Of a stretch of 64,000 nucleotides of DNA, positions 2,464 to 11,268 are shown piece by piece. Numbering within the stretch: position 1 is the stretch's first letter; each line of letters opens with the position of its first letter. The translations under genes and the position numbers were made by a program. Location: NCBI GenBank assembly GCA_963667495.1, contig OY763426.1, positions 1,347,615-1,411,614 of the forward strand, in the 5' to 3' direction. The DNA is from Candidatus Binatia bacterium. Its GTDB lineage: Bacteria; Desulfobacterota; Binatia; Bin18. The notes beneath the pieces were generated by a model. It saw only the letters and a list, made by a program, of their open reading frames with translations, was not told the DNA's origin and did not search any database.

Positions 2464-2587
2464 GTCTGTCCTCCTTTTCGCTTGCGATGAGCCGGTTTGT
2501 TGACTCTTCAGGCCGGTTGCCGGCCCTCCTTCATCGGCCTTGCAATTTCTAATTGAGAATATATATTACAAGTTAGAGCTTACACAA

Positions 2588-2613
2588 GAGGGGTTTTGTG
2601 CAAAAATCCCCTC
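2588..2613. promoter_or_regulatory. Imperfect 26-bp palindrome GAGGGGTTTTGTGCAAAAATCCCCTC; candidate TetR operator
   Basis: It lies in the divergent intergenic region between the Rieske oxygenase (minus) and the TetR regulator (plus), just upstream of the TetR RBS. An AT-rich patch (ctaattgagaatatatattacaag) sits nearby in an otherwise GC-rich context. Confidence 0.35.
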
Positions 2614-2650
2614 AGAGGGCGAGCACACACATGTGATAGAGGAGGTAGTC

Positions 2651-3253
2651 GTGTCCCCTGGGCCAGCGAAACAGTTTGAAATCGAAAAGGTACTGAACCG
2701 TGCCATGACCGTGTTCTGGGAGAAGGGATACGCGGCGACCAATATGGAGGACCTCCAGAAACGGATGGGCATCGGCGCGCGCAGCCTGTACGACACGTTT
2801 GGCAACAAGCGAGCCCTGTTCATCCGGACGCTTGACCATTACACGGCCACCTTCGTGCACACGCTCTACGGCGATCTGGACGCGACTGAGGCGACGCTGG
2901 ACGTCCTCCCCTCGATGCTGCGGACGCTGCAACACACGCATGAACGCTCCGGGGGGCGCGGGTGTTTCCTGGGGGTGGCGATGGCGCAGGTCCCCCGTGA
3001 CGACACCGAGCTCGTAGCGCTCATCCGCCAACACGTTGGGGTAATGGAAGACGCCTTCTACGCGGTCTGCGTCCGCGCGCAGGATCGGGGACAACTCGAC
3101 CCGGCGGTGCACCCGCGCGACCTGGCACGCTTTTACGTGGCGCTGTTCCAGGGATTAAACCTCGTCTCACGCATCGAGCCGGACGGGGAGCTCTTCCAGA
3201 GCGCCGCCCGGGTCCTGGCTGATAGCCAGCCCACGGCCAGCCGCGCCAACTAG
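2651..3253 (+). CDS. TetR/AcrR family transcriptional regulator
   Basis: The N-terminal HTH KQFEIEKVLNRAMTVFWEKGYAATNMEDLQKRMGIGARSLYDTFGNKRALF is typical of TetR_N. I chose the GTG at 2651 because a GAGGAGG RBS sits 5 nt upstream. The track ORF begins at 2540 with an unlikely N-terminal extension. Confidence 0.8.
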   Translation: MSPGPAKQFEIEKVLNRAMTVFWEKGYAATNMEDLQKRMGIGARSLYDTFGNKRALFIRTLDHYTATFVHTLYGDLDATEATLDVLPSMLRTLQHTHERSGGRGCFLGVAMAQVPRDDTELVALIRQHVGVMEDAFYAVCVRAQDRGQLDPAVHPRDLARFYVALFQGLNLVSRIEPDGELFQSAARVLADSQPTASRAN

Positions 3254-3318
3254 ATAGGTGATTGCCCATTCCCCGTTGGGTCGAGAAACCACTGGATACG
3301 AAAGAGGATACCGGAAAC

Positions 3319-4113
3319 ATGGCTGCGCAAACAGACGAACCAATAGAGCTTCTCACCTATCCGAATAGCCCGTATGGCGCAAAAGTTTATTGGGCACTGC
3401 AATTCAAAGGCGCCAAGTTCGCTCTGAGCTATGTCAATGGATTCACTACGAAAGAAATCGCTTTTTCAAAGCAGAAAGTGGTCCCAGTTCTCAAAATTGG
3501 TGATCGGTGGCTACAGGACTCTCGCGAGAACTGTTTGCGCTTGGAAGAGGTTTTCCCGGAGCGTTCTTTCGCCGGAAAGACTGAGCAGGAACGTGAAGAC
3601 GTCATTGCTGCTGACCAATGGGTAGATCGGAATATATTCGGGCTACACATGCGCGCGTGTATCGATAAACGAGAAAGCGTTCTTAGTAAACGGAACGCGC
3701 GAAGAATGGCAGATGTGGTGCTGCCGAGTTTTTCAGGTCTGCCACCGCTCTGGTTTAGGAATGTCGTACTCAAGCCAACTTGGTGGTTCGTGTTGCGGAA
3801 TGTTGGTTTTGTAAAACGGATGGCGAGTCAGATTGATACACACAAAGACCTTCAATCCGTTCACGCTGAAGTGGTAAGGGCGTTTGAAAAACGTATTGGA
3901 AAAACGGGCTTTCTTGCTGGGACTGAAGAGCCCTCGTTCGCCGATATCGCCGCATTCGCACAAATTGCGTTCTGCACGACGCATGGTTTCGAGGGCACGT
4001 TGAACGCTGACGCATCGCCCGTGGTCAGCGCCTGGTATGACCGGATGCGGACCTATTTCCCAGACAACCCAACCCCTGCCCTCTTTCCGTACTGGCCACC
4101 CGCCGGGTTCTAG
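3319..4113 (+). CDS. Glutathione S-transferase-like protein (thioredoxin-fold N-terminus plus GST C-terminus)
   Basis: LLTYPNSPYGAKVYWALQFKGAKF...VPVL resembles a GST/glutaredoxin-2-like N-terminus. The start at 3319 has a GAGGA RBS. Local GC is lower than the surroundings. Confidence 0.6.
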   Translation: MAAQTDEPIELLTYPNSPYGAKVYWALQFKGAKFALSYVNGFTTKEIAFSKQKVVPVLKIGDRWLQDSRENCLRLEEVFPERSFAGKTEQEREDVIAADQWVDRNIFGLHMRACIDKRESVLSKRNARRMADVVLPSFSGLPPLWFRNVVLKPTWWFVLRNVGFVKRMASQIDTHKDLQSVHAEVVRAFEKRIGKTGFLAGTEEPSFADIAAFAQIAFCTTHGFEGTLNADASPVVSAWYDRMRTYFPDNPTPALFPYWPPAGF

Positions 4114-4208: not shown

Positions 4209-5351
4209 ATGACCACCGTTCAAGAGACGATTCCCGCCTCTCTTCAGCCCGATGTGGACGCCGCGCTGTCCTGGTTCAACCAACGCCAGGACATATCCTT
4301 TGAGGTGACGGGCATTCTCGACCCGGAGGACGCTCTTTCACAGAGCGAGCCCCGCGAGCTCAAGCTCGTACTCTGCGGGGGAGATCGGTGCGAGCAGCGC
4401 TCGTTCCGTGTGACGCGCAGCGCCGAAGGGGCTGCTGTTGCGTTCGCTGAAGAAGTCGCTGTAGCGGCTGGGCAGGACGTCCCGAGCCCCGAGCTTGATC
4501 CACCGCCGGGTGCCCGCCGCGGGTGGCTTGACCGTGCGCTCAGCCAGCATGCATTTGTCGTGCTCGTCTTCTACCGGGGATTCTGGTGACCACCGTGTCG
4601 CTCCGAGTTGCGGAGCTACACGAGTGCCGGGATCGCCGAGAAGGTGCGCGCCGCGGGTGGGGAGATCTATGCCGTCACGAGTGAGCCACAGACGCTGGCC
4701 TCTCGTGCGCAATCGGAGTGGGAGTTCGACTTCGAGTCGGTCGGCGACCCGCACCATGAGATCGCCGGAAGCTGCCGGGAGCGTGGCTGGATCGAGCTAT
4801 TCGTGAATGACAAGCTCGACTTTCTGCGCGAGGGCACGAAGGACGAGCCGGATTGGTCGGCCCAGCATCCGAAGGGTCACTTCCAAGCGGGCGTACTCGC
4901 CGTCACGGCGGAGGGGCGGATTCTGTACCGCTGGCGCAAAGTGCCCACGCGCAAGAACGTTGGCGGTGCGCTGGGGCGGCTGACTCCCGAGCACGCGTGG
5001 TCACAGATCGACGCCGCCCTTCAATCTGACGCTGACGGGGATGCCGCCCTCGACGAGGATGCGGCACTCGATTTCCCCGACGTTTTCTGGCCGATCTTCG
5101 CCGCCGTGCTAGTCGCAAACGGGTGGTTCGTACGGCCCCTCGCTTTCGGCTACAAGGCTCACGACCCCAAGGGGAAGCACCGCCTCCGGCGCGCGGGATT
5201 CCGGTTACTCGGCTTCGTCGCAGCCTGGGCCGCGGCGTTCTGGTGGGGCCCACCGCTCTGGGTGGGCGCGGCCCTCGTGGCCTGGTTCGCCTGGATCACG
5301 CCGAAGCTGCCATTTGTGAACGGCGAGTTTCAGCATATCAAGCCGGCTTAA
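4209..5351 (+). CDS. Redoxin / Prx-like thiol-disulfide oxidoreductase with an in-frame TGA (putative selenocysteine, UPPC motif) and a C-terminal hydrophobic region
   Basis: The track ORFs 4209..4589 and 4608..5351 are in the same frame and separated only by the TGA at 4587-4589. Read through, the sequence is AFVVLVFYRGFW-U-PPCRSELRSYTSAGIAEKVRAAGGEIYAVTSEPQ...FESVGDPHHEIA...VLAVTAEGRILYRW, which matches redoxin/AhpC-TSA family signatures (VLVFYRG.WCP.C, YAVS.D). The TGA occupies the first Cys of the CxxC motif. The native GC is high. Confidence 0.7.
4600..4616 (+). other. Candidate bacterial SECIS hairpin (GCUCCG-AGUUG-CGGAGC), 10 nt after the in-frame UGA
   Basis: The 6-bp stem is a perfect inverted repeat and the 5-nt apical loop contains GU. 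The spacing from the UGA matches bacterial SelB-dependent SECIS elements. Confidence 0.5.
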
Positions 5352-5383
5352 GAGCAACCCAATAGAAAAGAAGGAGAGACCCA

Positions 5384-6397
5384 ATGGACGTATTACGCGC
5401 CCCGGATGAACGATTCGCGAACCTGCCCGGCTACAGTTTCGAACCTCACTACACTGAGGTTTCCGACGGCGAAGGCGGCGAACTGCGACTTCACCACGTA
5501 GAGCAAGGACCTTCCTCGGGTGAGGTCGTACTCTGTTTGCACGGGCAGCCCACCTGGTCCTACTTGTACCGCAAGATGATCCCGGTCTTTGCCCAAGCGG
5601 GTTACCGCACCATTGCGCCAGACTTCGTCGGGTTCGGCCGCTCGGACAAGCCGACGCGAACCGAGGATTACACCTATGCAAGGCACGTCGAGTGGATGCG
5701 GCAATGGCTACAGACAAACCAACTGAATGATATCACGCTGGTGTGTCAAGATTGGGGAGGGCTGATCGGTCTACGCTTGGTGGCGACGCTCCCAGAGCAT
5801 TTCTCCCGGGTCGTCATCGCAAACACGGGCCTCCCGGAGGGCTCTGGTTTTCTAACCTCGTTCGATATTCGTCTAGCACCGAAGATGCATCGGGTGTACT
5901 CCTCGCTGCCCGTGCCCGCGAGCCTAAGCGAGGTCTTTGCGAAAATTCAAAACCCCGGAGAGGTGCCACCGTTTTTTTTCTGGCGAAAATTCGTGGCGCA
6001 AAGTCCTAATTTTCGTCCGCAGGATTTCGTTGAGATGGCTTCGAGCAGCGAACTCTCCGCCGATGTGCTCGCAGCATACGAAGCGCCTTTCCCCGACGAA
6101 CGTTTTCTAGCAGGAGCGAGGCGGTTCCCGAGTTTGGTGCCGATCACGCCCGACGAGCCGGAGGCCACGAGCAATCGAATGGCATGGAATGTATTGCAGA
6201 CGTTTGACAAGCCGTTCCTAACCGCGTTTAGCGACGGTGATATTGGATCCGCCGGCATGGAAAGAGAATTCCAGGAACGCGTTCCCGGTGCTAAGAAGCA
6301 GGCGCACATCACGATCAGAGACGCTGGCCACTTTCTTCAGGAGGACGCGGGGGAGCGGTTCGCTGAAGAGATCGTAAACTTCATGCGTACCAACTGA
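5384..6397 (+). CDS. Haloalkane dehalogenase (alpha/beta hydrolase fold)
   Basis: ERFANLPGYSFEPHY.EV...LRLHHVEQGP..GEVVLCLHGQPTWSYLYRKMIP...APDFVGFGRSDKP...DYTYARHVEWM...DITLVCQDWGG is the canonical haloalkane dehalogenase N-terminus with its nucleophile-elbow context. A GAAGGAGAG RBS lies upstream. Confidence 0.85.
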   Translation: MDVLRAPDERFANLPGYSFEPHYTEVSDGEGGELRLHHVEQGPSSGEVVLCLHGQPTWSYLYRKMIPVFAQAGYRTIAPDFVGFGRSDKPTRTEDYTYARHVEWMRQWLQTNQLNDITLVCQDWGGLIGLRLVATLPEHFSRVVIANTGLPEGSGFLTSFDIRLAPKMHRVYSSLPVPASLSEVFAKIQNPGEVPPFFFWRKFVAQSPNFRPQDFVEMASSSELSADVLAAYEAPFPDERFLAGARRFPSLVPITPDEPEATSNRMAWNVLQTFDKPFLTAFSDGDIGSAGMEREFQERVPGAKKQAHITIRDAGHFLQEDAGERFAEEIVNFMRTN

Positions 6398-6404
6398 CCG
6401 GAAG

Positions 6405-6428
6405 TCGCCGCGACGCGGCGATTTGCAG
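6405..6428 (+). terminator. Hairpin tcgccgcg-acg-cggcga followed by TTTG; weak intrinsic terminator after the dehalogenase gene
   Basis: A perfect 8-bp GC stem sits immediately 3' of the stop at 6397. The U-tract is short. Confidence 0.4.
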
Positions 6429-6452
6429 TATATGGACCAGTGGGCGGATTTG

Positions 6453-7271
6453 GTCACGGTCAGGAGGCGGATTACCCCGCCCCCTGCCGCTGCAAAACCG
6501 TACGTGAGACTTTGGTCTCATACGGCTTGTCAAACCGCTAGTCCCTGACACGGATACCAGACGCGGCATTCCGCAGTGTCTGGCTCGGGATATGAGCTTT
6601 GGGAGCTGGCCGACCCCTCTAGGAGGGCTGACCACGCCTCAGTATGCATCGCTGCATCTGCCATAGCGATAAAGCTCCTACTCGTTCCTATCCTTTCTAG
6701 CGACCTGTGCCCGCGTCAGCATATCTCGCGGCTTTCCCGCGAGCCTTGGCTTCTCGGACAATCCTGCCTCCGGTGAACATACGGCTGACTACCTACCCGC
6801 CCTCCTATTGGAGGGTGGGAGATCATCGAAGGTTATCCCGTTCCTGTTACCTGCTGGTGTGTGACCGTAGGATCGTGCTCTACGCCGGGTCTACTGCGAG
6901 CGGAGTCCCCAGCTCTGCGGTGCTGAGGACCTGAGACCAGTCCCTTTTGGGCCAGCCGCTAAGCCAGAGTCGGCTAGGTCGCAATCACGACGCCTCCATA
7001 CACGTTCGCTTGCGCTATCCCTAGTCACCTGGGTCGAGGGTCACCTGATCTGACTTCGGTGAGTGCCCCTTTGAACCCTTGCACTCCGACGGTTGAGGGT
7101 CAGTCGCGCGCCGTAGGGTTCTCCCGTCTCCCGTCCGCCACGGGGGGAGGACTTGCGAGAAGAGACAGTCTCTTCCGCTCACCTCCGCAGATAACAAGTT
7201 GTCAAAGAGCATGAAGCTCTCCGCCGCTCAGCCTCCCATCTCCCGATGGTTTCGAGCGAACGGGTCGCACC
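6453..7271 (-). mobile_element. ORF-less group II intron (ribozyme only, about 820 nt)
   Basis: On the minus strand a textbook domain V, AAGCCGUAUGAGAC-CAAA-GUCUCACGUACGGUUU, maps to plus coordinates 6496-6528. It has the AGC triad, a 2-nt AC bulge and a tetraloop. A GC-rich domain VI hairpin follows with a bulged A 7 nt before an ...GAC 3' end near 6453. The 5' end, GUGCGAC, is at 7271. No ORF longer than 63 aa lies inside, so no RT/maturase is encoded. Confidence 0.7.
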
Positions 7272-7647
7272 GCAAAAAGTTACGGTTTCAAGTGGACAGA
7301 GCGCCCATCTGAAGTCCCGATTTTGTGTCCGATAAGGCCGTTTCTGTCAAACTCCTCAGAAATATGAGCTCTCGGTGTGGTGCAACACTTTGCTAGTCAT
7401 CTGTTTACGGAGAAGAAAAAGATGACAGGGATGTGGACTTAAAGTGCGGAAAAGTGGGCTTTGGTGCCGAGAAGCCAAAACTAAAAATGAAACACAGACA
7501 GCCGGACTGTTTCACGGCCTTTTTTTCAGGCGAACACCCCGTCTTGTGGGCGATCGCCCTTGCGGCGGCGGGCGACATCCCCTGCTCAATATATCCGCGG
7601 CTTCGGCTATTGACTGATCGCGGCTCTATCGACGATCCTTGATTCCT

Positions 7648-8241
7648 TTAACAGCCCGGCTGTTCCGCTTCTGCCCGCATGTCCTGATGCGCGAATGAAA
7701 GCGGACACGGCTTGCCCACCCCGTCGAGCCCGACGGCGTAGACCAGCCGTCCGTAGCCAATAAAAATCGCCATACGCCAGCCCAGGGCCATGATCTCGGG
7801 CTCGCTGTAATGGGTCCGCAACTCGTCAAACAAATCCTGGGAGACCTGTTTATGATCGCGGGCCAGGGTGTCCGCAAAGCGCAGGGCAGCTTTCTCACGC
7901 GGTGTGAACAAATCGCTGTCCTGAAAATGGGGCAGGGCGTGGATCATTTCCTCCGTCAGACCTTGTTGCCTCGCCGAGGCATACACGGCCGTCATTCAAA
8001 GCTGGCATTCGTTGATCTGGGCCACCTTGTGCCGAATCAGCTCGGTCAGCTTCACGCTGATCCCATCGACGTCGACCATAATATGGGAGTAGTAAAAATC
8101 GACGAAGTGTTTATAGAGGTCCGGGGTATGGGCAAAGACCTGTATCCATTCCGACCCGCCGAGCGCCTCGTCGCTCTGCTGCATGGTTTTTTGCAGCTCG
8201 GGGTCAACCTTCTCAAACGGCACCTTGCTGACACGTAGCAT
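7648..8241 (-). CDS. AhpD-like / carboxymuconolactone decarboxylase family protein with an in-frame TGA (putative selenocysteine, C-x-x-U motif)
   Basis: The track ORFs 7996..8241 and 7648..7995 are contiguous and in the same frame, separated only by a TGA (plus coordinates 7996-7998). Read through, the sequence is ELIRHKVAQINECQL-U-MTAVYA..., which aligns with the CMD-family motif RVSQxNGCxYC in which the TGA replaces the second Cys. Downstream, TPREKAALRFADTLARDHKQVSQDLFDELRTHYSEPEIMALGWRMAIFIGYGRL is typical of AhpD-like proteins. Confidence 0.7.
7967..7981 (-). other. Candidate SECIS hairpin (UGCCUC-GGC-GAGGCA), 14 nt after the minus-strand UGA
   Basis: It is a perfect 6-bp inverted repeat on the minus-strand mRNA. 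The loop is short, so this call is less convincing than the redoxin SECIS. Confidence 0.35.
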
Positions 8242-8372
8242 CGGTCTTCCTCCTTACTGTGCAGTGGGTTTCCTTTGCCAATAAACCAATGCGGACGTAT
8301 TTGGAAGAGCTGAGTCGGTAGTGCCCCAGCTTCGCCTCATCCTTCTGTCTGCGGCACATCCCCCTCCCTGGC

Positions 8373-8430
8373 CCTCCCCTCAAGGGGGAGGGAATGTCTG
8401 CTCCCTCTCCCCTGGAGGGAGAGGGCTGGG
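8373..8430. repeat. Two tandem GC-rich hairpins (CCCTCCCC-TCAA-GGGGAGGG and CCCTCTCCC-CTGGA-GGGAGAGGG) in the 3' region of the S9 peptidase gene
   Basis: Both are perfect inverted repeats seen directly in the sequence. No U-tract follows, so this is either a structured 3' UTR or a REP-like element. Confidence 0.4.
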
Positions 8431-8468
8431 GTGAGGGGGGATTCCAAAGTGAGACACTACCCGAATTT

Positions 8469-10403
8469 TTAGTCCGGCAGATTCTCGATGGTCAGGGGCT
8501 CAACGGCTTCGGCCAAGGGGAACCCGAAAATGCGCGAGTAAAAATATAACTCGCCGTCCAAGGCGCGCCTGATATTCTCGGCCTTGCGAAAGCCGTGCTG
8601 TTCGCCCGCAAACAGGACATAGGCGACCGGCAACCCTTTCTCCCTGAGGGCCGCCACCATCAGTTCGGCCTGATTGGGCGGGACGATCTTATCTTCCGCG
8701 CCCTGGAAGACAATCAAGGGACACGAAAGTTGCTGGGTAAAATGAACCGGCGAGCGCGCCTGATAGACGTCCTGTCGCTCCGGGTAGGGTCCGACCAGAT
8801 TGTCCGGGTAGCGGGACTCGAACTTATGGGTGTCGCGCGCCAACGCTTCGAGGTCGCTGATCCCGTAATGGCTCGCCCCGGCCCGAAACGTATTGCGAAA
8901 GGTCAATGCACACAGGGTCGTATAGCCCCCGGCGCTGCCGCCGGTAATGGTCAGCCGCTCGGCATCGACCTCGCCACGGGCGACCAGATAGTTCGCACCG
9001 TTGACGCAGTCGTCCACATCGACAATCCCCCAGTGGCCGTTCAGGCGTTGCCGATAGGCCCGCCCATAACCGGTGCTGCCCCCATAGTTCACGTCCAGAA
9101 CGGCAAAGCCGCGGCTCGTCCAGTATTGAATACTAAGATCAAGCGCCGTCTGCGCGGCCGAGGTCGGTCCGCCGTGGCTTTTGACGACCAGCGGCGGGCG
9201 TTCCTCTTGTGGAGCAACGTAGTCAGCGTTTGTGGGCGGATAGAACAGACCGTACGCGGTCCGGTCGTGTTCGGTCGGAAAGGCAACGGCCTGGGGCGCT
9301 GAAAGATAACCAGGGTCCAGGTCGAGTTGGCTGGATTGACGCAGGACGGTACAGGCGTGTGTTTCCAGGTCGAGTTGGACGACCGCAGGCGGGGCGACTG
9401 GCGAGCCCGCCAGAAACACCGCCCTACCGGCTGAAGCGTGTACTCCACTCACTTCGGTATACGGCAGCGCAATGGCGTCGCACTGCCGCGTCCCCGGATC
9501 AAGGCCGGCCATATGCCAAGTCCCGTTTTCCGCGTAGGTGCAGATAATCCGGTTGGCAGAAGCGAAGGCATAGGTCGCCATACCAAACATCCACTGCGGT
9601 CGGCCAAAATCCGCGGTCTTTTCCCATAGTGCCTCGATGCTGCCGTTACGGACTCGATACAGATTCCACCAGCCGGAGCGATCCGACACAAAGTATAAGA
9701 TACCGAGCGGAGACCACTCGGGCTGAAAAATGGACTCCGCGTCGCCGCCGGCTACCCGCCTGACTTCCGCCAGGGAACCGTCCGAGCGGACCGTCCCTCC
9801 CCACAGCTCGGTGCCGTCCCATGGCATTTGCGGATGGTTCCACGACAACCAGGCGAGCTGGGTGCCGTCCGGGTTGAGCCGGGGGTTGGAATAAAAATCA
9901 CTCCCGGAGACGATGACCGTCTCTTCCCCGCTGGCGAGATCAATACTGACCAGGGTATTCACCGCTTCCTGTCCCGCCTGTCGGTGATCTTCGCGCACAC
10001 AGATCAAACGGCTACGCTGGGTGTCAACAACGGTATCGGCATAGCGCAGCCCGTCTACTGTGGTTAGGGGCGTGGGCTCGGCCGCTCCGGTCTGACAATA
10101 CAGCCGCTGCTCCGTAAAATTTGAAAAATAGAGTGCGCCGTCCCGGACGGCATATGCCCCGCCCCCATATTCATGCACGCGCGTCCGGGCATTAAAGGGC
10201 GCGGGTGTCAGGTCCGTTATCGTTCCGTCAGGCGTGCGTCGCACGATGACATTCCGCCCGCCCTCGGTCGGTCGTTGTTCTATCCAGTACACCGTCTCTC
10301 CATCCAGCCGAACCTGGCCTAAGCCTACCGTTCCGGCCACGATCAGGTCCGATGTGATAGGTGATTTCCACGAACCGTATGGGGCCGTTTTTTTGTCAGG
10401 CAT
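8469..10403 (-). CDS. S9 family serine peptidase (prolyl oligopeptidase / acylaminoacyl-peptidase type; beta-propeller plus alpha/beta hydrolase)
   Basis: The C-terminus has the GGSAGGY nucleophile elbow, the Asp and His residues of the triad, and a long N-terminal propeller. The start was moved to Met15 (10403) because a GAGGGG RBS lies upstream. Confidence 0.85.
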
Positions 10404-10523
10404 TGATCCCCTCACTGTATTTTGAAGGAAGAGACTGCATAGCAATCTCTATTCGTGTCGAGGTCTGGACTTTTCTCATTTTGTGCGTTTTTGTGAAAGC
10501 TATAGTATAGAGGAGGACATGGT

Positions 10524-10760
10524 ATGCAGTCTGCCTTACGTATCAAGACCACGGTGCTCCCAGGAGGAAAAATTGAAGTTGTTGATGAAACCCTCCAAGC
10601 AGGAGAGGCTGTAGACGTTATCGTTCTCCCCCAGCGAGCATCAACCGCTCGTCAATCGGCTGTCGATATTTTAGCCGGAGCACCAGGGCAACGTCTCTTT
10701 CACACGGCAGAAGAGGTCGATGCCTCCATCAAAAAAGAGCGCGACGCATGGGATCGTTGA
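10524..10760 (+). CDS. vapB: Type II antitoxin (VapB-like), partner of the downstream PIN toxin
   Basis: 78 aa. It overlaps the PIN-domain gene by 13 nt. Local GC is lower than the surroundings. Confidence 0.6.
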   Translation: MQSALRIKTTVLPGGKIEVVDETLQAGEAVDVIVLPQRASTARQSAVDILAGAPGQRLFHTAEEVDASIKKERDAWDR

Positions 10761-11188
10761 CTCTTCCCGCTATTGGTCCCATTTATCTTGATGCCAATGG
10801 ATTTATCTATAGCGTCGAGCGGATTGAACCGTACCGCACTGTACTCGAACCATTGTGGCAGCAAGCCCAAGCAGGACAGTTCCAAATCGTCAGCAGTGAA
10901 TTAACACTGCTCGAAACTCTTGTGAAGCCTTTCCAAAAGGAAGACGCATTACTCGAAAATATCTTTCGCTCCCTCTTTGTATCGCGTGAAGTGCAACTCA
11001 TTCCCGCTACGACAGCCATCTGGGAACAGGCTGCACGTCTTCGAGCCTCGCTCAACTTAAAGACTCCAGATGCACTACATGCCGCCTCTGCTCTTGCTGT
11101 TGGCAGCACTCTGCTTCTCACCAATGATCCGGACTTTCGTCAGATTCCAGACGTGCCGGTCACTGTTCTCGGCGACGTGGTCAGCTGA
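10748..11188 (+). CDS. vapC: PIN-domain ribonuclease toxin (VapC family)
   Basis: 146 aa. The fold pattern is PIN-like with conserved acidic residues (YLDANGFIY...TND). Confidence 0.7.
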   Translation: MGSLTLPAIGPIYLDANGFIYSVERIEPYRTVLEPLWQQAQAGQFQIVSSELTLLETLVKPFQKEDALLENIFRSLFVSREVQLIPATTAIWEQAARLRASLNLKTPDALHAASALAVGSTLLLTNDPDFRQIPDVPVTVLGDVVS

Positions 11189-11268
11189 ACCTCCCTTTCC
11201 ATTCTCCCTTTACTCCTCCCCACCCGCAGCGCTATGCTTCCCGGCAGTAACTCCAAGGAGGCAGGCGT

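Follow-up and report, generated by a model that had tools for sequence, protein, structure and literature searches.

The in-frame UGA of an AhpD-like gene in a Candidatus Binatia relative very probably encodes selenocysteine (Sec), which would replace an active-site Cys. The gene was studied in a 64-kb stretch of DNA (64,000 nucleotides, hereafter called the window), and the closest relatives of the window are Candidatus Binatia MAGs with 94-98% protein identity. On the minus strand, ORF 7996..8241 (81 aa plus stop) is followed in the same frame and without a gap by ORF 7648..7995 (115 aa), and the sole break between them is the TGA at 7996-7998. The original prediction had described such a pair of in-frame ORFs separated by a TGA, and this is borne out by the single frame of 197 codons. 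The features of this gene are the following:

7648..8241, minus strand: complete coding sequence of the putative AhpD-like/CMD selenoprotein, 197 codons including Sec82, with ATG at 8241 and TAA at 7650-7648.
7996..7998, minus strand: in-frame UGA, codon 82, at the second position of the C79-x-x-U82 motif; it is the lone stop, and Cys homologs read CHLC and CQLC.
8005..8007, minus strand: codon of Cys79, the putative partner (resolving) Cys of the CxxU centre, which aligns with Cys48 of PA0269.
8249..8255, minus strand: Shine-Dalgarno sequence AAGGAGG, 7 nt 5' of the ATG, read directly from the sequence and rated as strong.

The read-through translation at the UGA is ...RHKVAQINECQL-(UGA)-MTAVYA... 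and, over a longer stretch around codon 82, ...LTELIRHKVAQINECQL-(UGA)-MTAVYASARQQG.... The motif at this site is N-E-C79-Q-L-U82. Thus, of the CMD/AhpD core motif that had been proposed, the position of Sec at the second Cys was retained; the N-G-C-x-Y-C sequence was not, the actual one being N-E-C-Q-L-U, and the relay His is missing. An exact look-up of the 115-aa ORF gave no identical entry on record. The whole AhpD-like gene aligned to orthologs over its full length in 37 loci.

A protein search returned two full-length Cys homologs, with CHLC (P0001) and CQLC (P0002) at the site, and about 40 gene calls of 108-122 residues beginning right after the UGA, a pattern typically left by mis-called selenoprotein genes. 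Two public gene calls that are almost identical to each other (P0007 and P0042, one of them on a 9.17-Mb contig) have C-terminal ends out of the frame of the window, which points to frameshifts in these assemblies, either real or due to errors. A contig scan with one genome per species gave 80 loci, and the codons were tallied from a re-alignment of 79 related loci. The aligned codon 82 was TGA in 42/79 loci, TGC or TGT in 32/79, and a Phe codon (TTC/TTT) in 5/79. Homologs of the CMD family therefore do place Cys at the U position, as had been anticipated. The loci with TGA came from Binatia, Gammaproteobacteria, 'delta' MAGs, Methylomirabilota (L044, L046, L047), Chloroflexi (L055, L067), and a Rhodospirillales MAG (L066), and in all 42 of them the TGA was the lone stop in the alignment, with no other stop or frameshift. 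Substitutions relative to the window at codon positions 1/2/3 numbered 235/185/766 on the 5' side of the UGA and 430/261/1175 on its 3' side. This third-position bias on both sides indicates that both halves are translated in frame. It also answers the concern, raised together with the original prediction, that the upstream 81-aa ORF alone might be the conserved unit: both halves show the bias, and the CMD domain crosses the UGA.

The two ORFs could also be read as a split gene, in which translation would stop at the UGA and restart at the AUG that overlaps it (UGAAUG), the 81-aa and 115-aa pieces then assembling into one CMD fold. An AUG is indeed present directly after the UGA in the window and in most orthologs, and gene callers predict two ORFs. 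Nevertheless, the codon after the UGA is AUA, CAG or GGC in several UGA orthologs, which leaves no start codon there, and many Cys homologs likewise have a Met following the second Cys (CMAIR, CMALR), as expected of a family residue and not of a start signal. Hence, the second half is not a gene of its own. In addition, a split would break the active-site helix at a catalytic residue that is conserved in the Cys homologs, and it would leave unexplained the conserved, covarying hairpin described below. This reading is thus highly improbable, and we rejected it.

The Sec reading is further supported by a hairpin located downstream of the UGA:

7967..7981, minus strand: apical hairpin of the candidate SECIS, UGCCUC-GGC-GAGGCA, with a 6-bp stem and a G-rich triloop (from the fold, RNAalifold and comparison).
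7959..7990, minus strand: extended, interrupted stem of 13 bp including the lower part (from the predicted fold of the window sequence).

The stem begins 14 nt after the UGA, and the distance from the UGA to the loop is 20 nt. The 6-bp hairpin reported 14 nt downstream is thus present, and we keep it as a SECIS-type element with covariation. Pairs of the lower stem are poorly conserved, being often unpaired in other sequences. A comparison of the 69-nt fold with shuffles (z = -0.2) revealed no unusual stability for the hairpin alone, and no Rfam SECIS family was matched in a gathering scan of the window or in a scan of 6300-8500 at E<=1. As the single-sequence fold is unremarkable, the significance of the hairpin comes from the comparative analysis only.

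With the U of the UGA numbered as position 1, the same register (pairs 18-32 to 23-27, loop 24-26) was found in 30/30 distinct UGA sequences. All 30 form 5-6 of the 6 pairs, versus 0-5 (median 1) in 37 distinct Cys/Phe sequences (Mann-Whitney p 4e-13, to be taken as an upper-bound indication, as the sequences are not phylogenetically independent). The distant UGA lineages share 32-37% identity with the window and are as diverged from it as the Cys homologs; their hairpin is retained but differs in sequence, as in the variant stems UUCCCCU-GUC-AGGGGAA of Chloroflexi and CGCCUU-GGC-AAGGCG of Methylomirabilota. Independently, RNAalifold finds the same six pairs and no others, and 5/6 of them show compensatory double changes. 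A naming-independent count gave 30 double-change cells versus 9.1 in shuffles, and the proportion of paired cells dropped from 80% to 38-52% once the partner columns were slid. Also, among orthologs of 50-85% identity, codons for the same amino acid were identical to those of the window in 65/71 cases (92%) in the hairpin versus 746/1635 (46%) elsewhere in the gene, a freezing of synonymous sites that includes the Arg codon AGG (Fisher p 1e-15, again an upper-bound indication for the same reason). These tests agree, and the compensatory changes across phyla appear to be the strongest element in favor of a SECIS. According to the bSECISearch rule, bacterial SECIS elements have a distance of 16-37 nt between the UGA and the loop, and a G among the first loop bases. 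With 20 nt to the loop and a loop starting with G, the hairpin fits this rule; across the UGA sequences, the loop is GGC, GGG or GUC.

Only one of the non-UGA sequences had a high pair count. It belongs to the 'delta proteobacterium' MAG MFD04434 (L031:10244) and, at 63% identity, is the sole close ortholog that has TGC at the position of the TGA. This TGC ortholog still forms 5/6 hairpin pairs, and it is probably a recent Sec/Cys switch.

The window contains a second gene interrupted by a UGA at a redox motif:

4209..5351, plus strand: putative Prx-like redoxin selenoprotein gene, with its UGA at 4587-4589 in FYRGFW-U-PPC and a Pfam AhpC-TSA match that crosses the UGA.
About 4591-4626, plus strand: hairpin directly after the UGA of the redoxin gene (from the fold).

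Searching with the redoxin sequence retrieved over 100 truncated public calls of ~240 aa, as well as full-length homologs of 387-401 aa (PF00578) that read FYRGFWCPPC. The UGA is also kept in L081, a close Binatia relative. These Cys homologs and this conservation sustain the earlier proposal that the redoxin gene is UGA-recoded too, and the comparison shows it to be a second genuine Sec/Cys pair. The predicted protein has an N-terminal domain of ~110 aa without Pfam match, and a hydrophobic C-terminal tail. The gene comes after a TetR gene (2540-3253) and a GST gene (3262-4113), in the same orientation. On the 4.9-Mb contig of L081, the TetR, GST and redoxin (U) genes lie on one strand, and the AhpD-like (U) and peptidase S9 genes on the other, so that the two selenoprotein genes are convergent (tail-to-tail), 115 bp apart. 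The gene calls of L081 split both of them, the redoxin into 126 + 247 aa and the AhpD-like protein into 81 + 115 aa.

Neither the 64-kb window nor the 20-kb flanks of the Binatia loci yielded a selA, selB, selD or tRNA-Sec gene in tblastn searches with E. coli SelA, SelB and SelD queries and in ARAGORN scans of the window and all loci. Among the window and all loci searched, selA and selB were found only in L059. This locus (L059:40-2336) comes from an alphaproteobacterial MAG, and its selA and selB lie within 10 kb of a homolog that has Phe (TTT) at the Sec/Cys position. The lack of Sec machinery in the window and in the Binatia flanks would fit a decoding of the UGA that needs no Sec machinery, either through near-cognate suppression, which would insert a standard amino acid such as Trp, Cys or Arg, or through a reassigned genetic code. 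But TGA is the terminator of ordinary genes elsewhere in the same 64 kb (e.g., at 6395 and 57847), the UGA occurs only at the redox-Cys position, in two separate genes, and a SECIS-type hairpin at the canonical distance strictly co-occurs with it. We therefore rejected such a read-through, which is very unlikely. A mechanical scan of the 64 kb, judged by context and not by homology, revealed no further pair of TGA-joined frames with a redox motif. Finally, a pseudogene formed by a TGC-to-TGA nonsense mutation in an ordinary AhpD-like gene would require one substitution, and Cys homologs do exist, but this least probable of the alternatives was also rejected and is effectively refuted, since the TGA is kept in 42 genomes across several phyla without other stop or frameshift, the sequence 3' of the TGA is under purifying selection and hence not neutrally evolving, and the synonymous sites of the hairpin are constrained.

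Concerning the protein family, the Pfam CMD domain (PF02627) spans residues 40-124, across codon 82, when Cys is put for the stop (E 5.8e-13), with a score of 49.1 bits for a gathering cut-off of 23. The domain thus continues past the UGA to residue 124, in agreement with the resemblance to AhpD-like proteins that had been noticed for the downstream part. The best NCBIfam match was NF053654 ('YciW-related (seleno)protein', GroundWater_YciW), nearly full length (residues 1-153 aligned to profile positions 1-152), with 69.3 bits for a cut-off of 310; the Cys orthologs scored 61-93 bits. A nearly full-length match was also obtained with TIGR01926 ('peroxidase-related enzyme'), the window protein scoring 57.3 bits and the orthologs 33-70 bits for a curated cut-off of 81.8. 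The closest solved structure by sequence was PA0269 of Pseudomonas aeruginosa (E 1e-14). Glu67, Cys79 and U82 align to its relay residues Glu36, Cys48 and Cys51, which places both the relay Glu and the CxxC motif. The invariant relay His55 of PA0269 corresponds here to Val86, four residues past the second Cys position, and the Cys orthologs also have Val or Arg at this position. The fold was assessed by proxy on the AlphaFold model of the Cys ortholog P0002 (63% identical to the window protein, pLDDT 76). In Foldseek, this model matched PA0269 with a TM of 0.85 on the target, which indicates, by proxy, an all-helical AhpD-like fold. Its other matches were AhpD of D. radiodurans, several 'peroxidase-related' structural-genomics entries and the debrominase Bmp8. 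From the Pfam result, the sub-cut-off NCBIfam scores, the PA0269 alignment and the Foldseek results, we conclude that the window protein is an AhpD-like/CMD-fold thiol-redox protein, and not a canonical AhpD.

If the UGA at 7996-7998 is decoded as Sec, the frame 8241..7648 (minus strand) would encode a 197-residue, all-helical CMD/AhpD-like protein with the redox center Cys79-Gln-Leu-Sec82. The hairpin would act as a bacterial SECIS recruiting SelB with Sec-tRNA(Sec) to the ribosome, for a presumably SelB-dependent insertion. By analogy to M. tuberculosis AhpD (MtAhpD), the Sec82 selenolate may attack an oxidized substrate, i.e., a protein sulfenate, a disulfide or a hydroperoxide. We propose Sec82 as the attacking nucleophile because in MtAhpD the residue that cross-links to AhpC is the second Cys, Cys133, which is exposed (PMC6626918). 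Cys79 would resolve the resulting adduct by forming an intramolecular selenenylsulfide, to be re-reduced by a cellular thiol reductant, and Glu67 sits at the position of the relay glutamate. Neither the Sec nor the Cys members of the clade have the relay His, and the activation chemistry therefore differs in detail from that of AhpD. Thus, with Val86 in place of PA0269 His55, the detailed AhpD mechanism cannot be transferred unchanged.

The redoxin gene was absent from the 80 other AhpD-like loci, a Prx-like neighbor being present only in the window and in L081. In the other Binatia loci, synteny extends on the peptidase side only, with no redoxin within 10 kb. When the ORFs within 3.5 kb were clustered, no neighbor family was common to more than 4 of 24 loci. 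In the absence of a conserved neighbor across phyla, gene context therefore names no partner. No genetic linkage with ahpC was seen, and the adjoining Prx-like gene is convergent. By analogy with AhpC/AhpD, one could imagine that the AhpD-like protein and the convergent, membrane-anchored Prx-like protein form a two-selenium relay for hydroperoxide reduction, in which the AhpD-like selenol would recycle the oxidized Prx-like protein, but we regard this as unlikely. Still more speculative is the variant in which the CMD-fold selenoprotein would be a reductive dehalogenase, like Bmp8 or the deiodinases.

Several other features of the neighborhood were observed. In the window, both selenoprotein genes are separated by a 2.26-kb insertion (5377-7635) that L081 lacks; besides an alpha/beta-hydrolase gene (5384-6397), it comprises ~1.2 kb free of long ORFs. 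At the end of this ORF-poor stretch, Rfam gave a match of 52 bits to domain V/VI of group II introns (6453-6530, minus strand), and the stretch resembles a group II intron that has decayed or has no ORF. A segment of ~0.8 kb (10404-11204) is missing from L081 and most Binatia relatives. It contains a small ORF (10524-10760) that overlaps a PIN-domain gene (10748-11188, Pfam PIN E 5e-18), and it is probably an inserted VapBC-type toxin-antitoxin module. Between the peptidase S9 and AhpD-like genes, two adjacent G/C-rich palindromes, ccctctccctccaggggagaggg and ccctcccccttgaggggaggg, were found at 8355-8445. Similarity to relatives breaks in this spacer, where L014 aligns inverted. The palindromes look like a REP or Box-C-like repeat element, and we dismissed the miRNA-like Rfam matches obtained there as spurious.

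AhpD-like and CMD-domain selenoproteins with a CxxU motif were reported from the Sargasso Sea in 2005, with 27 and 4 sequences, respectively (PMC1088965). In the GOS study of 2008, 'AhpD-like 1' (COG2128, 299 sequences) and 'AhpD-like 2' (pfam02627, 70 sequences) were among the most abundant families; 'AhpD-like 2' was commoner in non-marine samples, and one read carried neighboring Prx-like 1 and AhpD-like 2 genes (PMC2398784). A 2026 review lists both AhpD-like families and the co-location of Prx-like and AhpD-like genes (PMC13188914). For Binatota, the phylum to which the present gene belongs, our search of the literature on Binatia or Binatota with selenocysteine or selenoprotein found no papers. 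The window protein resembles the published AhpD-like/CMD selenoproteins in its CMD domain, the Sec at the second position of CxxC, the widespread Cys homologs and the SECIS after the UGA, and the Prx-like/AhpD-like pair of the window is similar to the GOS 'AhpD-like 2' located beside a Prx-like gene. It differs from TIGR01926, the model of the review's 'AhpD-like protein', from which it is set apart by score (57.3 vs. 81.8 bits). Its score below this cut-off therefore places it in a separate orthogroup within the AhpD-like selenoprotein kind. The YciW-related family NF053654 likewise has selenoprotein members and matches over nearly the full length; with a score far under the cut-off, the window protein is a relative and not a member.

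Among characterized proteins, PA0269 (2IJC/2O4D/7XW1), an AhpD-like weak hydroperoxidase, and MtAhpD share with the predicted protein an all-helical structure, the helix-turn-helix active-site motif, a relay Glu 12 residues before the first Cys, the CxxC spacing and a second position that is exposed and attacking. The window protein differs from them by Sec instead of the second Cys, Leu instead of Tyr/His at x, Val86 instead of the invariant relay His, an extra N-terminal region of ~40 residues and the lack of an operonic ahpC. The CMD-fold reductive dehalogenase Bmp8 (6OHI/6OHJ) has the same fold (TM 0.73-0.80, sequence E 2e-4) and a thiol-based redox chemistry; at about 20% identity and with no halogenation genes near the window gene, it is a lead only, resting on the fold and a weak sequence match.

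Thus, the gene is a further orthogroup of the CxxU AhpD-like kind known since 2005, which is below every NCBIfam cut-off and lacks the relay His. The expectation that routine annotation misses such genes proved right, since public calls split both the AhpD-like and the redoxin genes, and the split or truncated pieces of the AhpD-like protein are labeled 'hypothetical protein' or 'alkylhydroperoxidase family enzyme'. Because the orthogroup reaches no current NCBIfam cut-off, a dedicated model would be useful and would recover dozens of missed selenoproteins. The value of the finding is therefore one of annotation; selenoprotein biology is unchanged by it, as CxxU AhpD-like proteins are already among the commonest bacterial selenoprotein families described. 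For the organism, it means that UGA most likely codes for Sec in this Candidatus Binatia lineage, and the same most likely applies to many soil and groundwater MAGs of other phyla.
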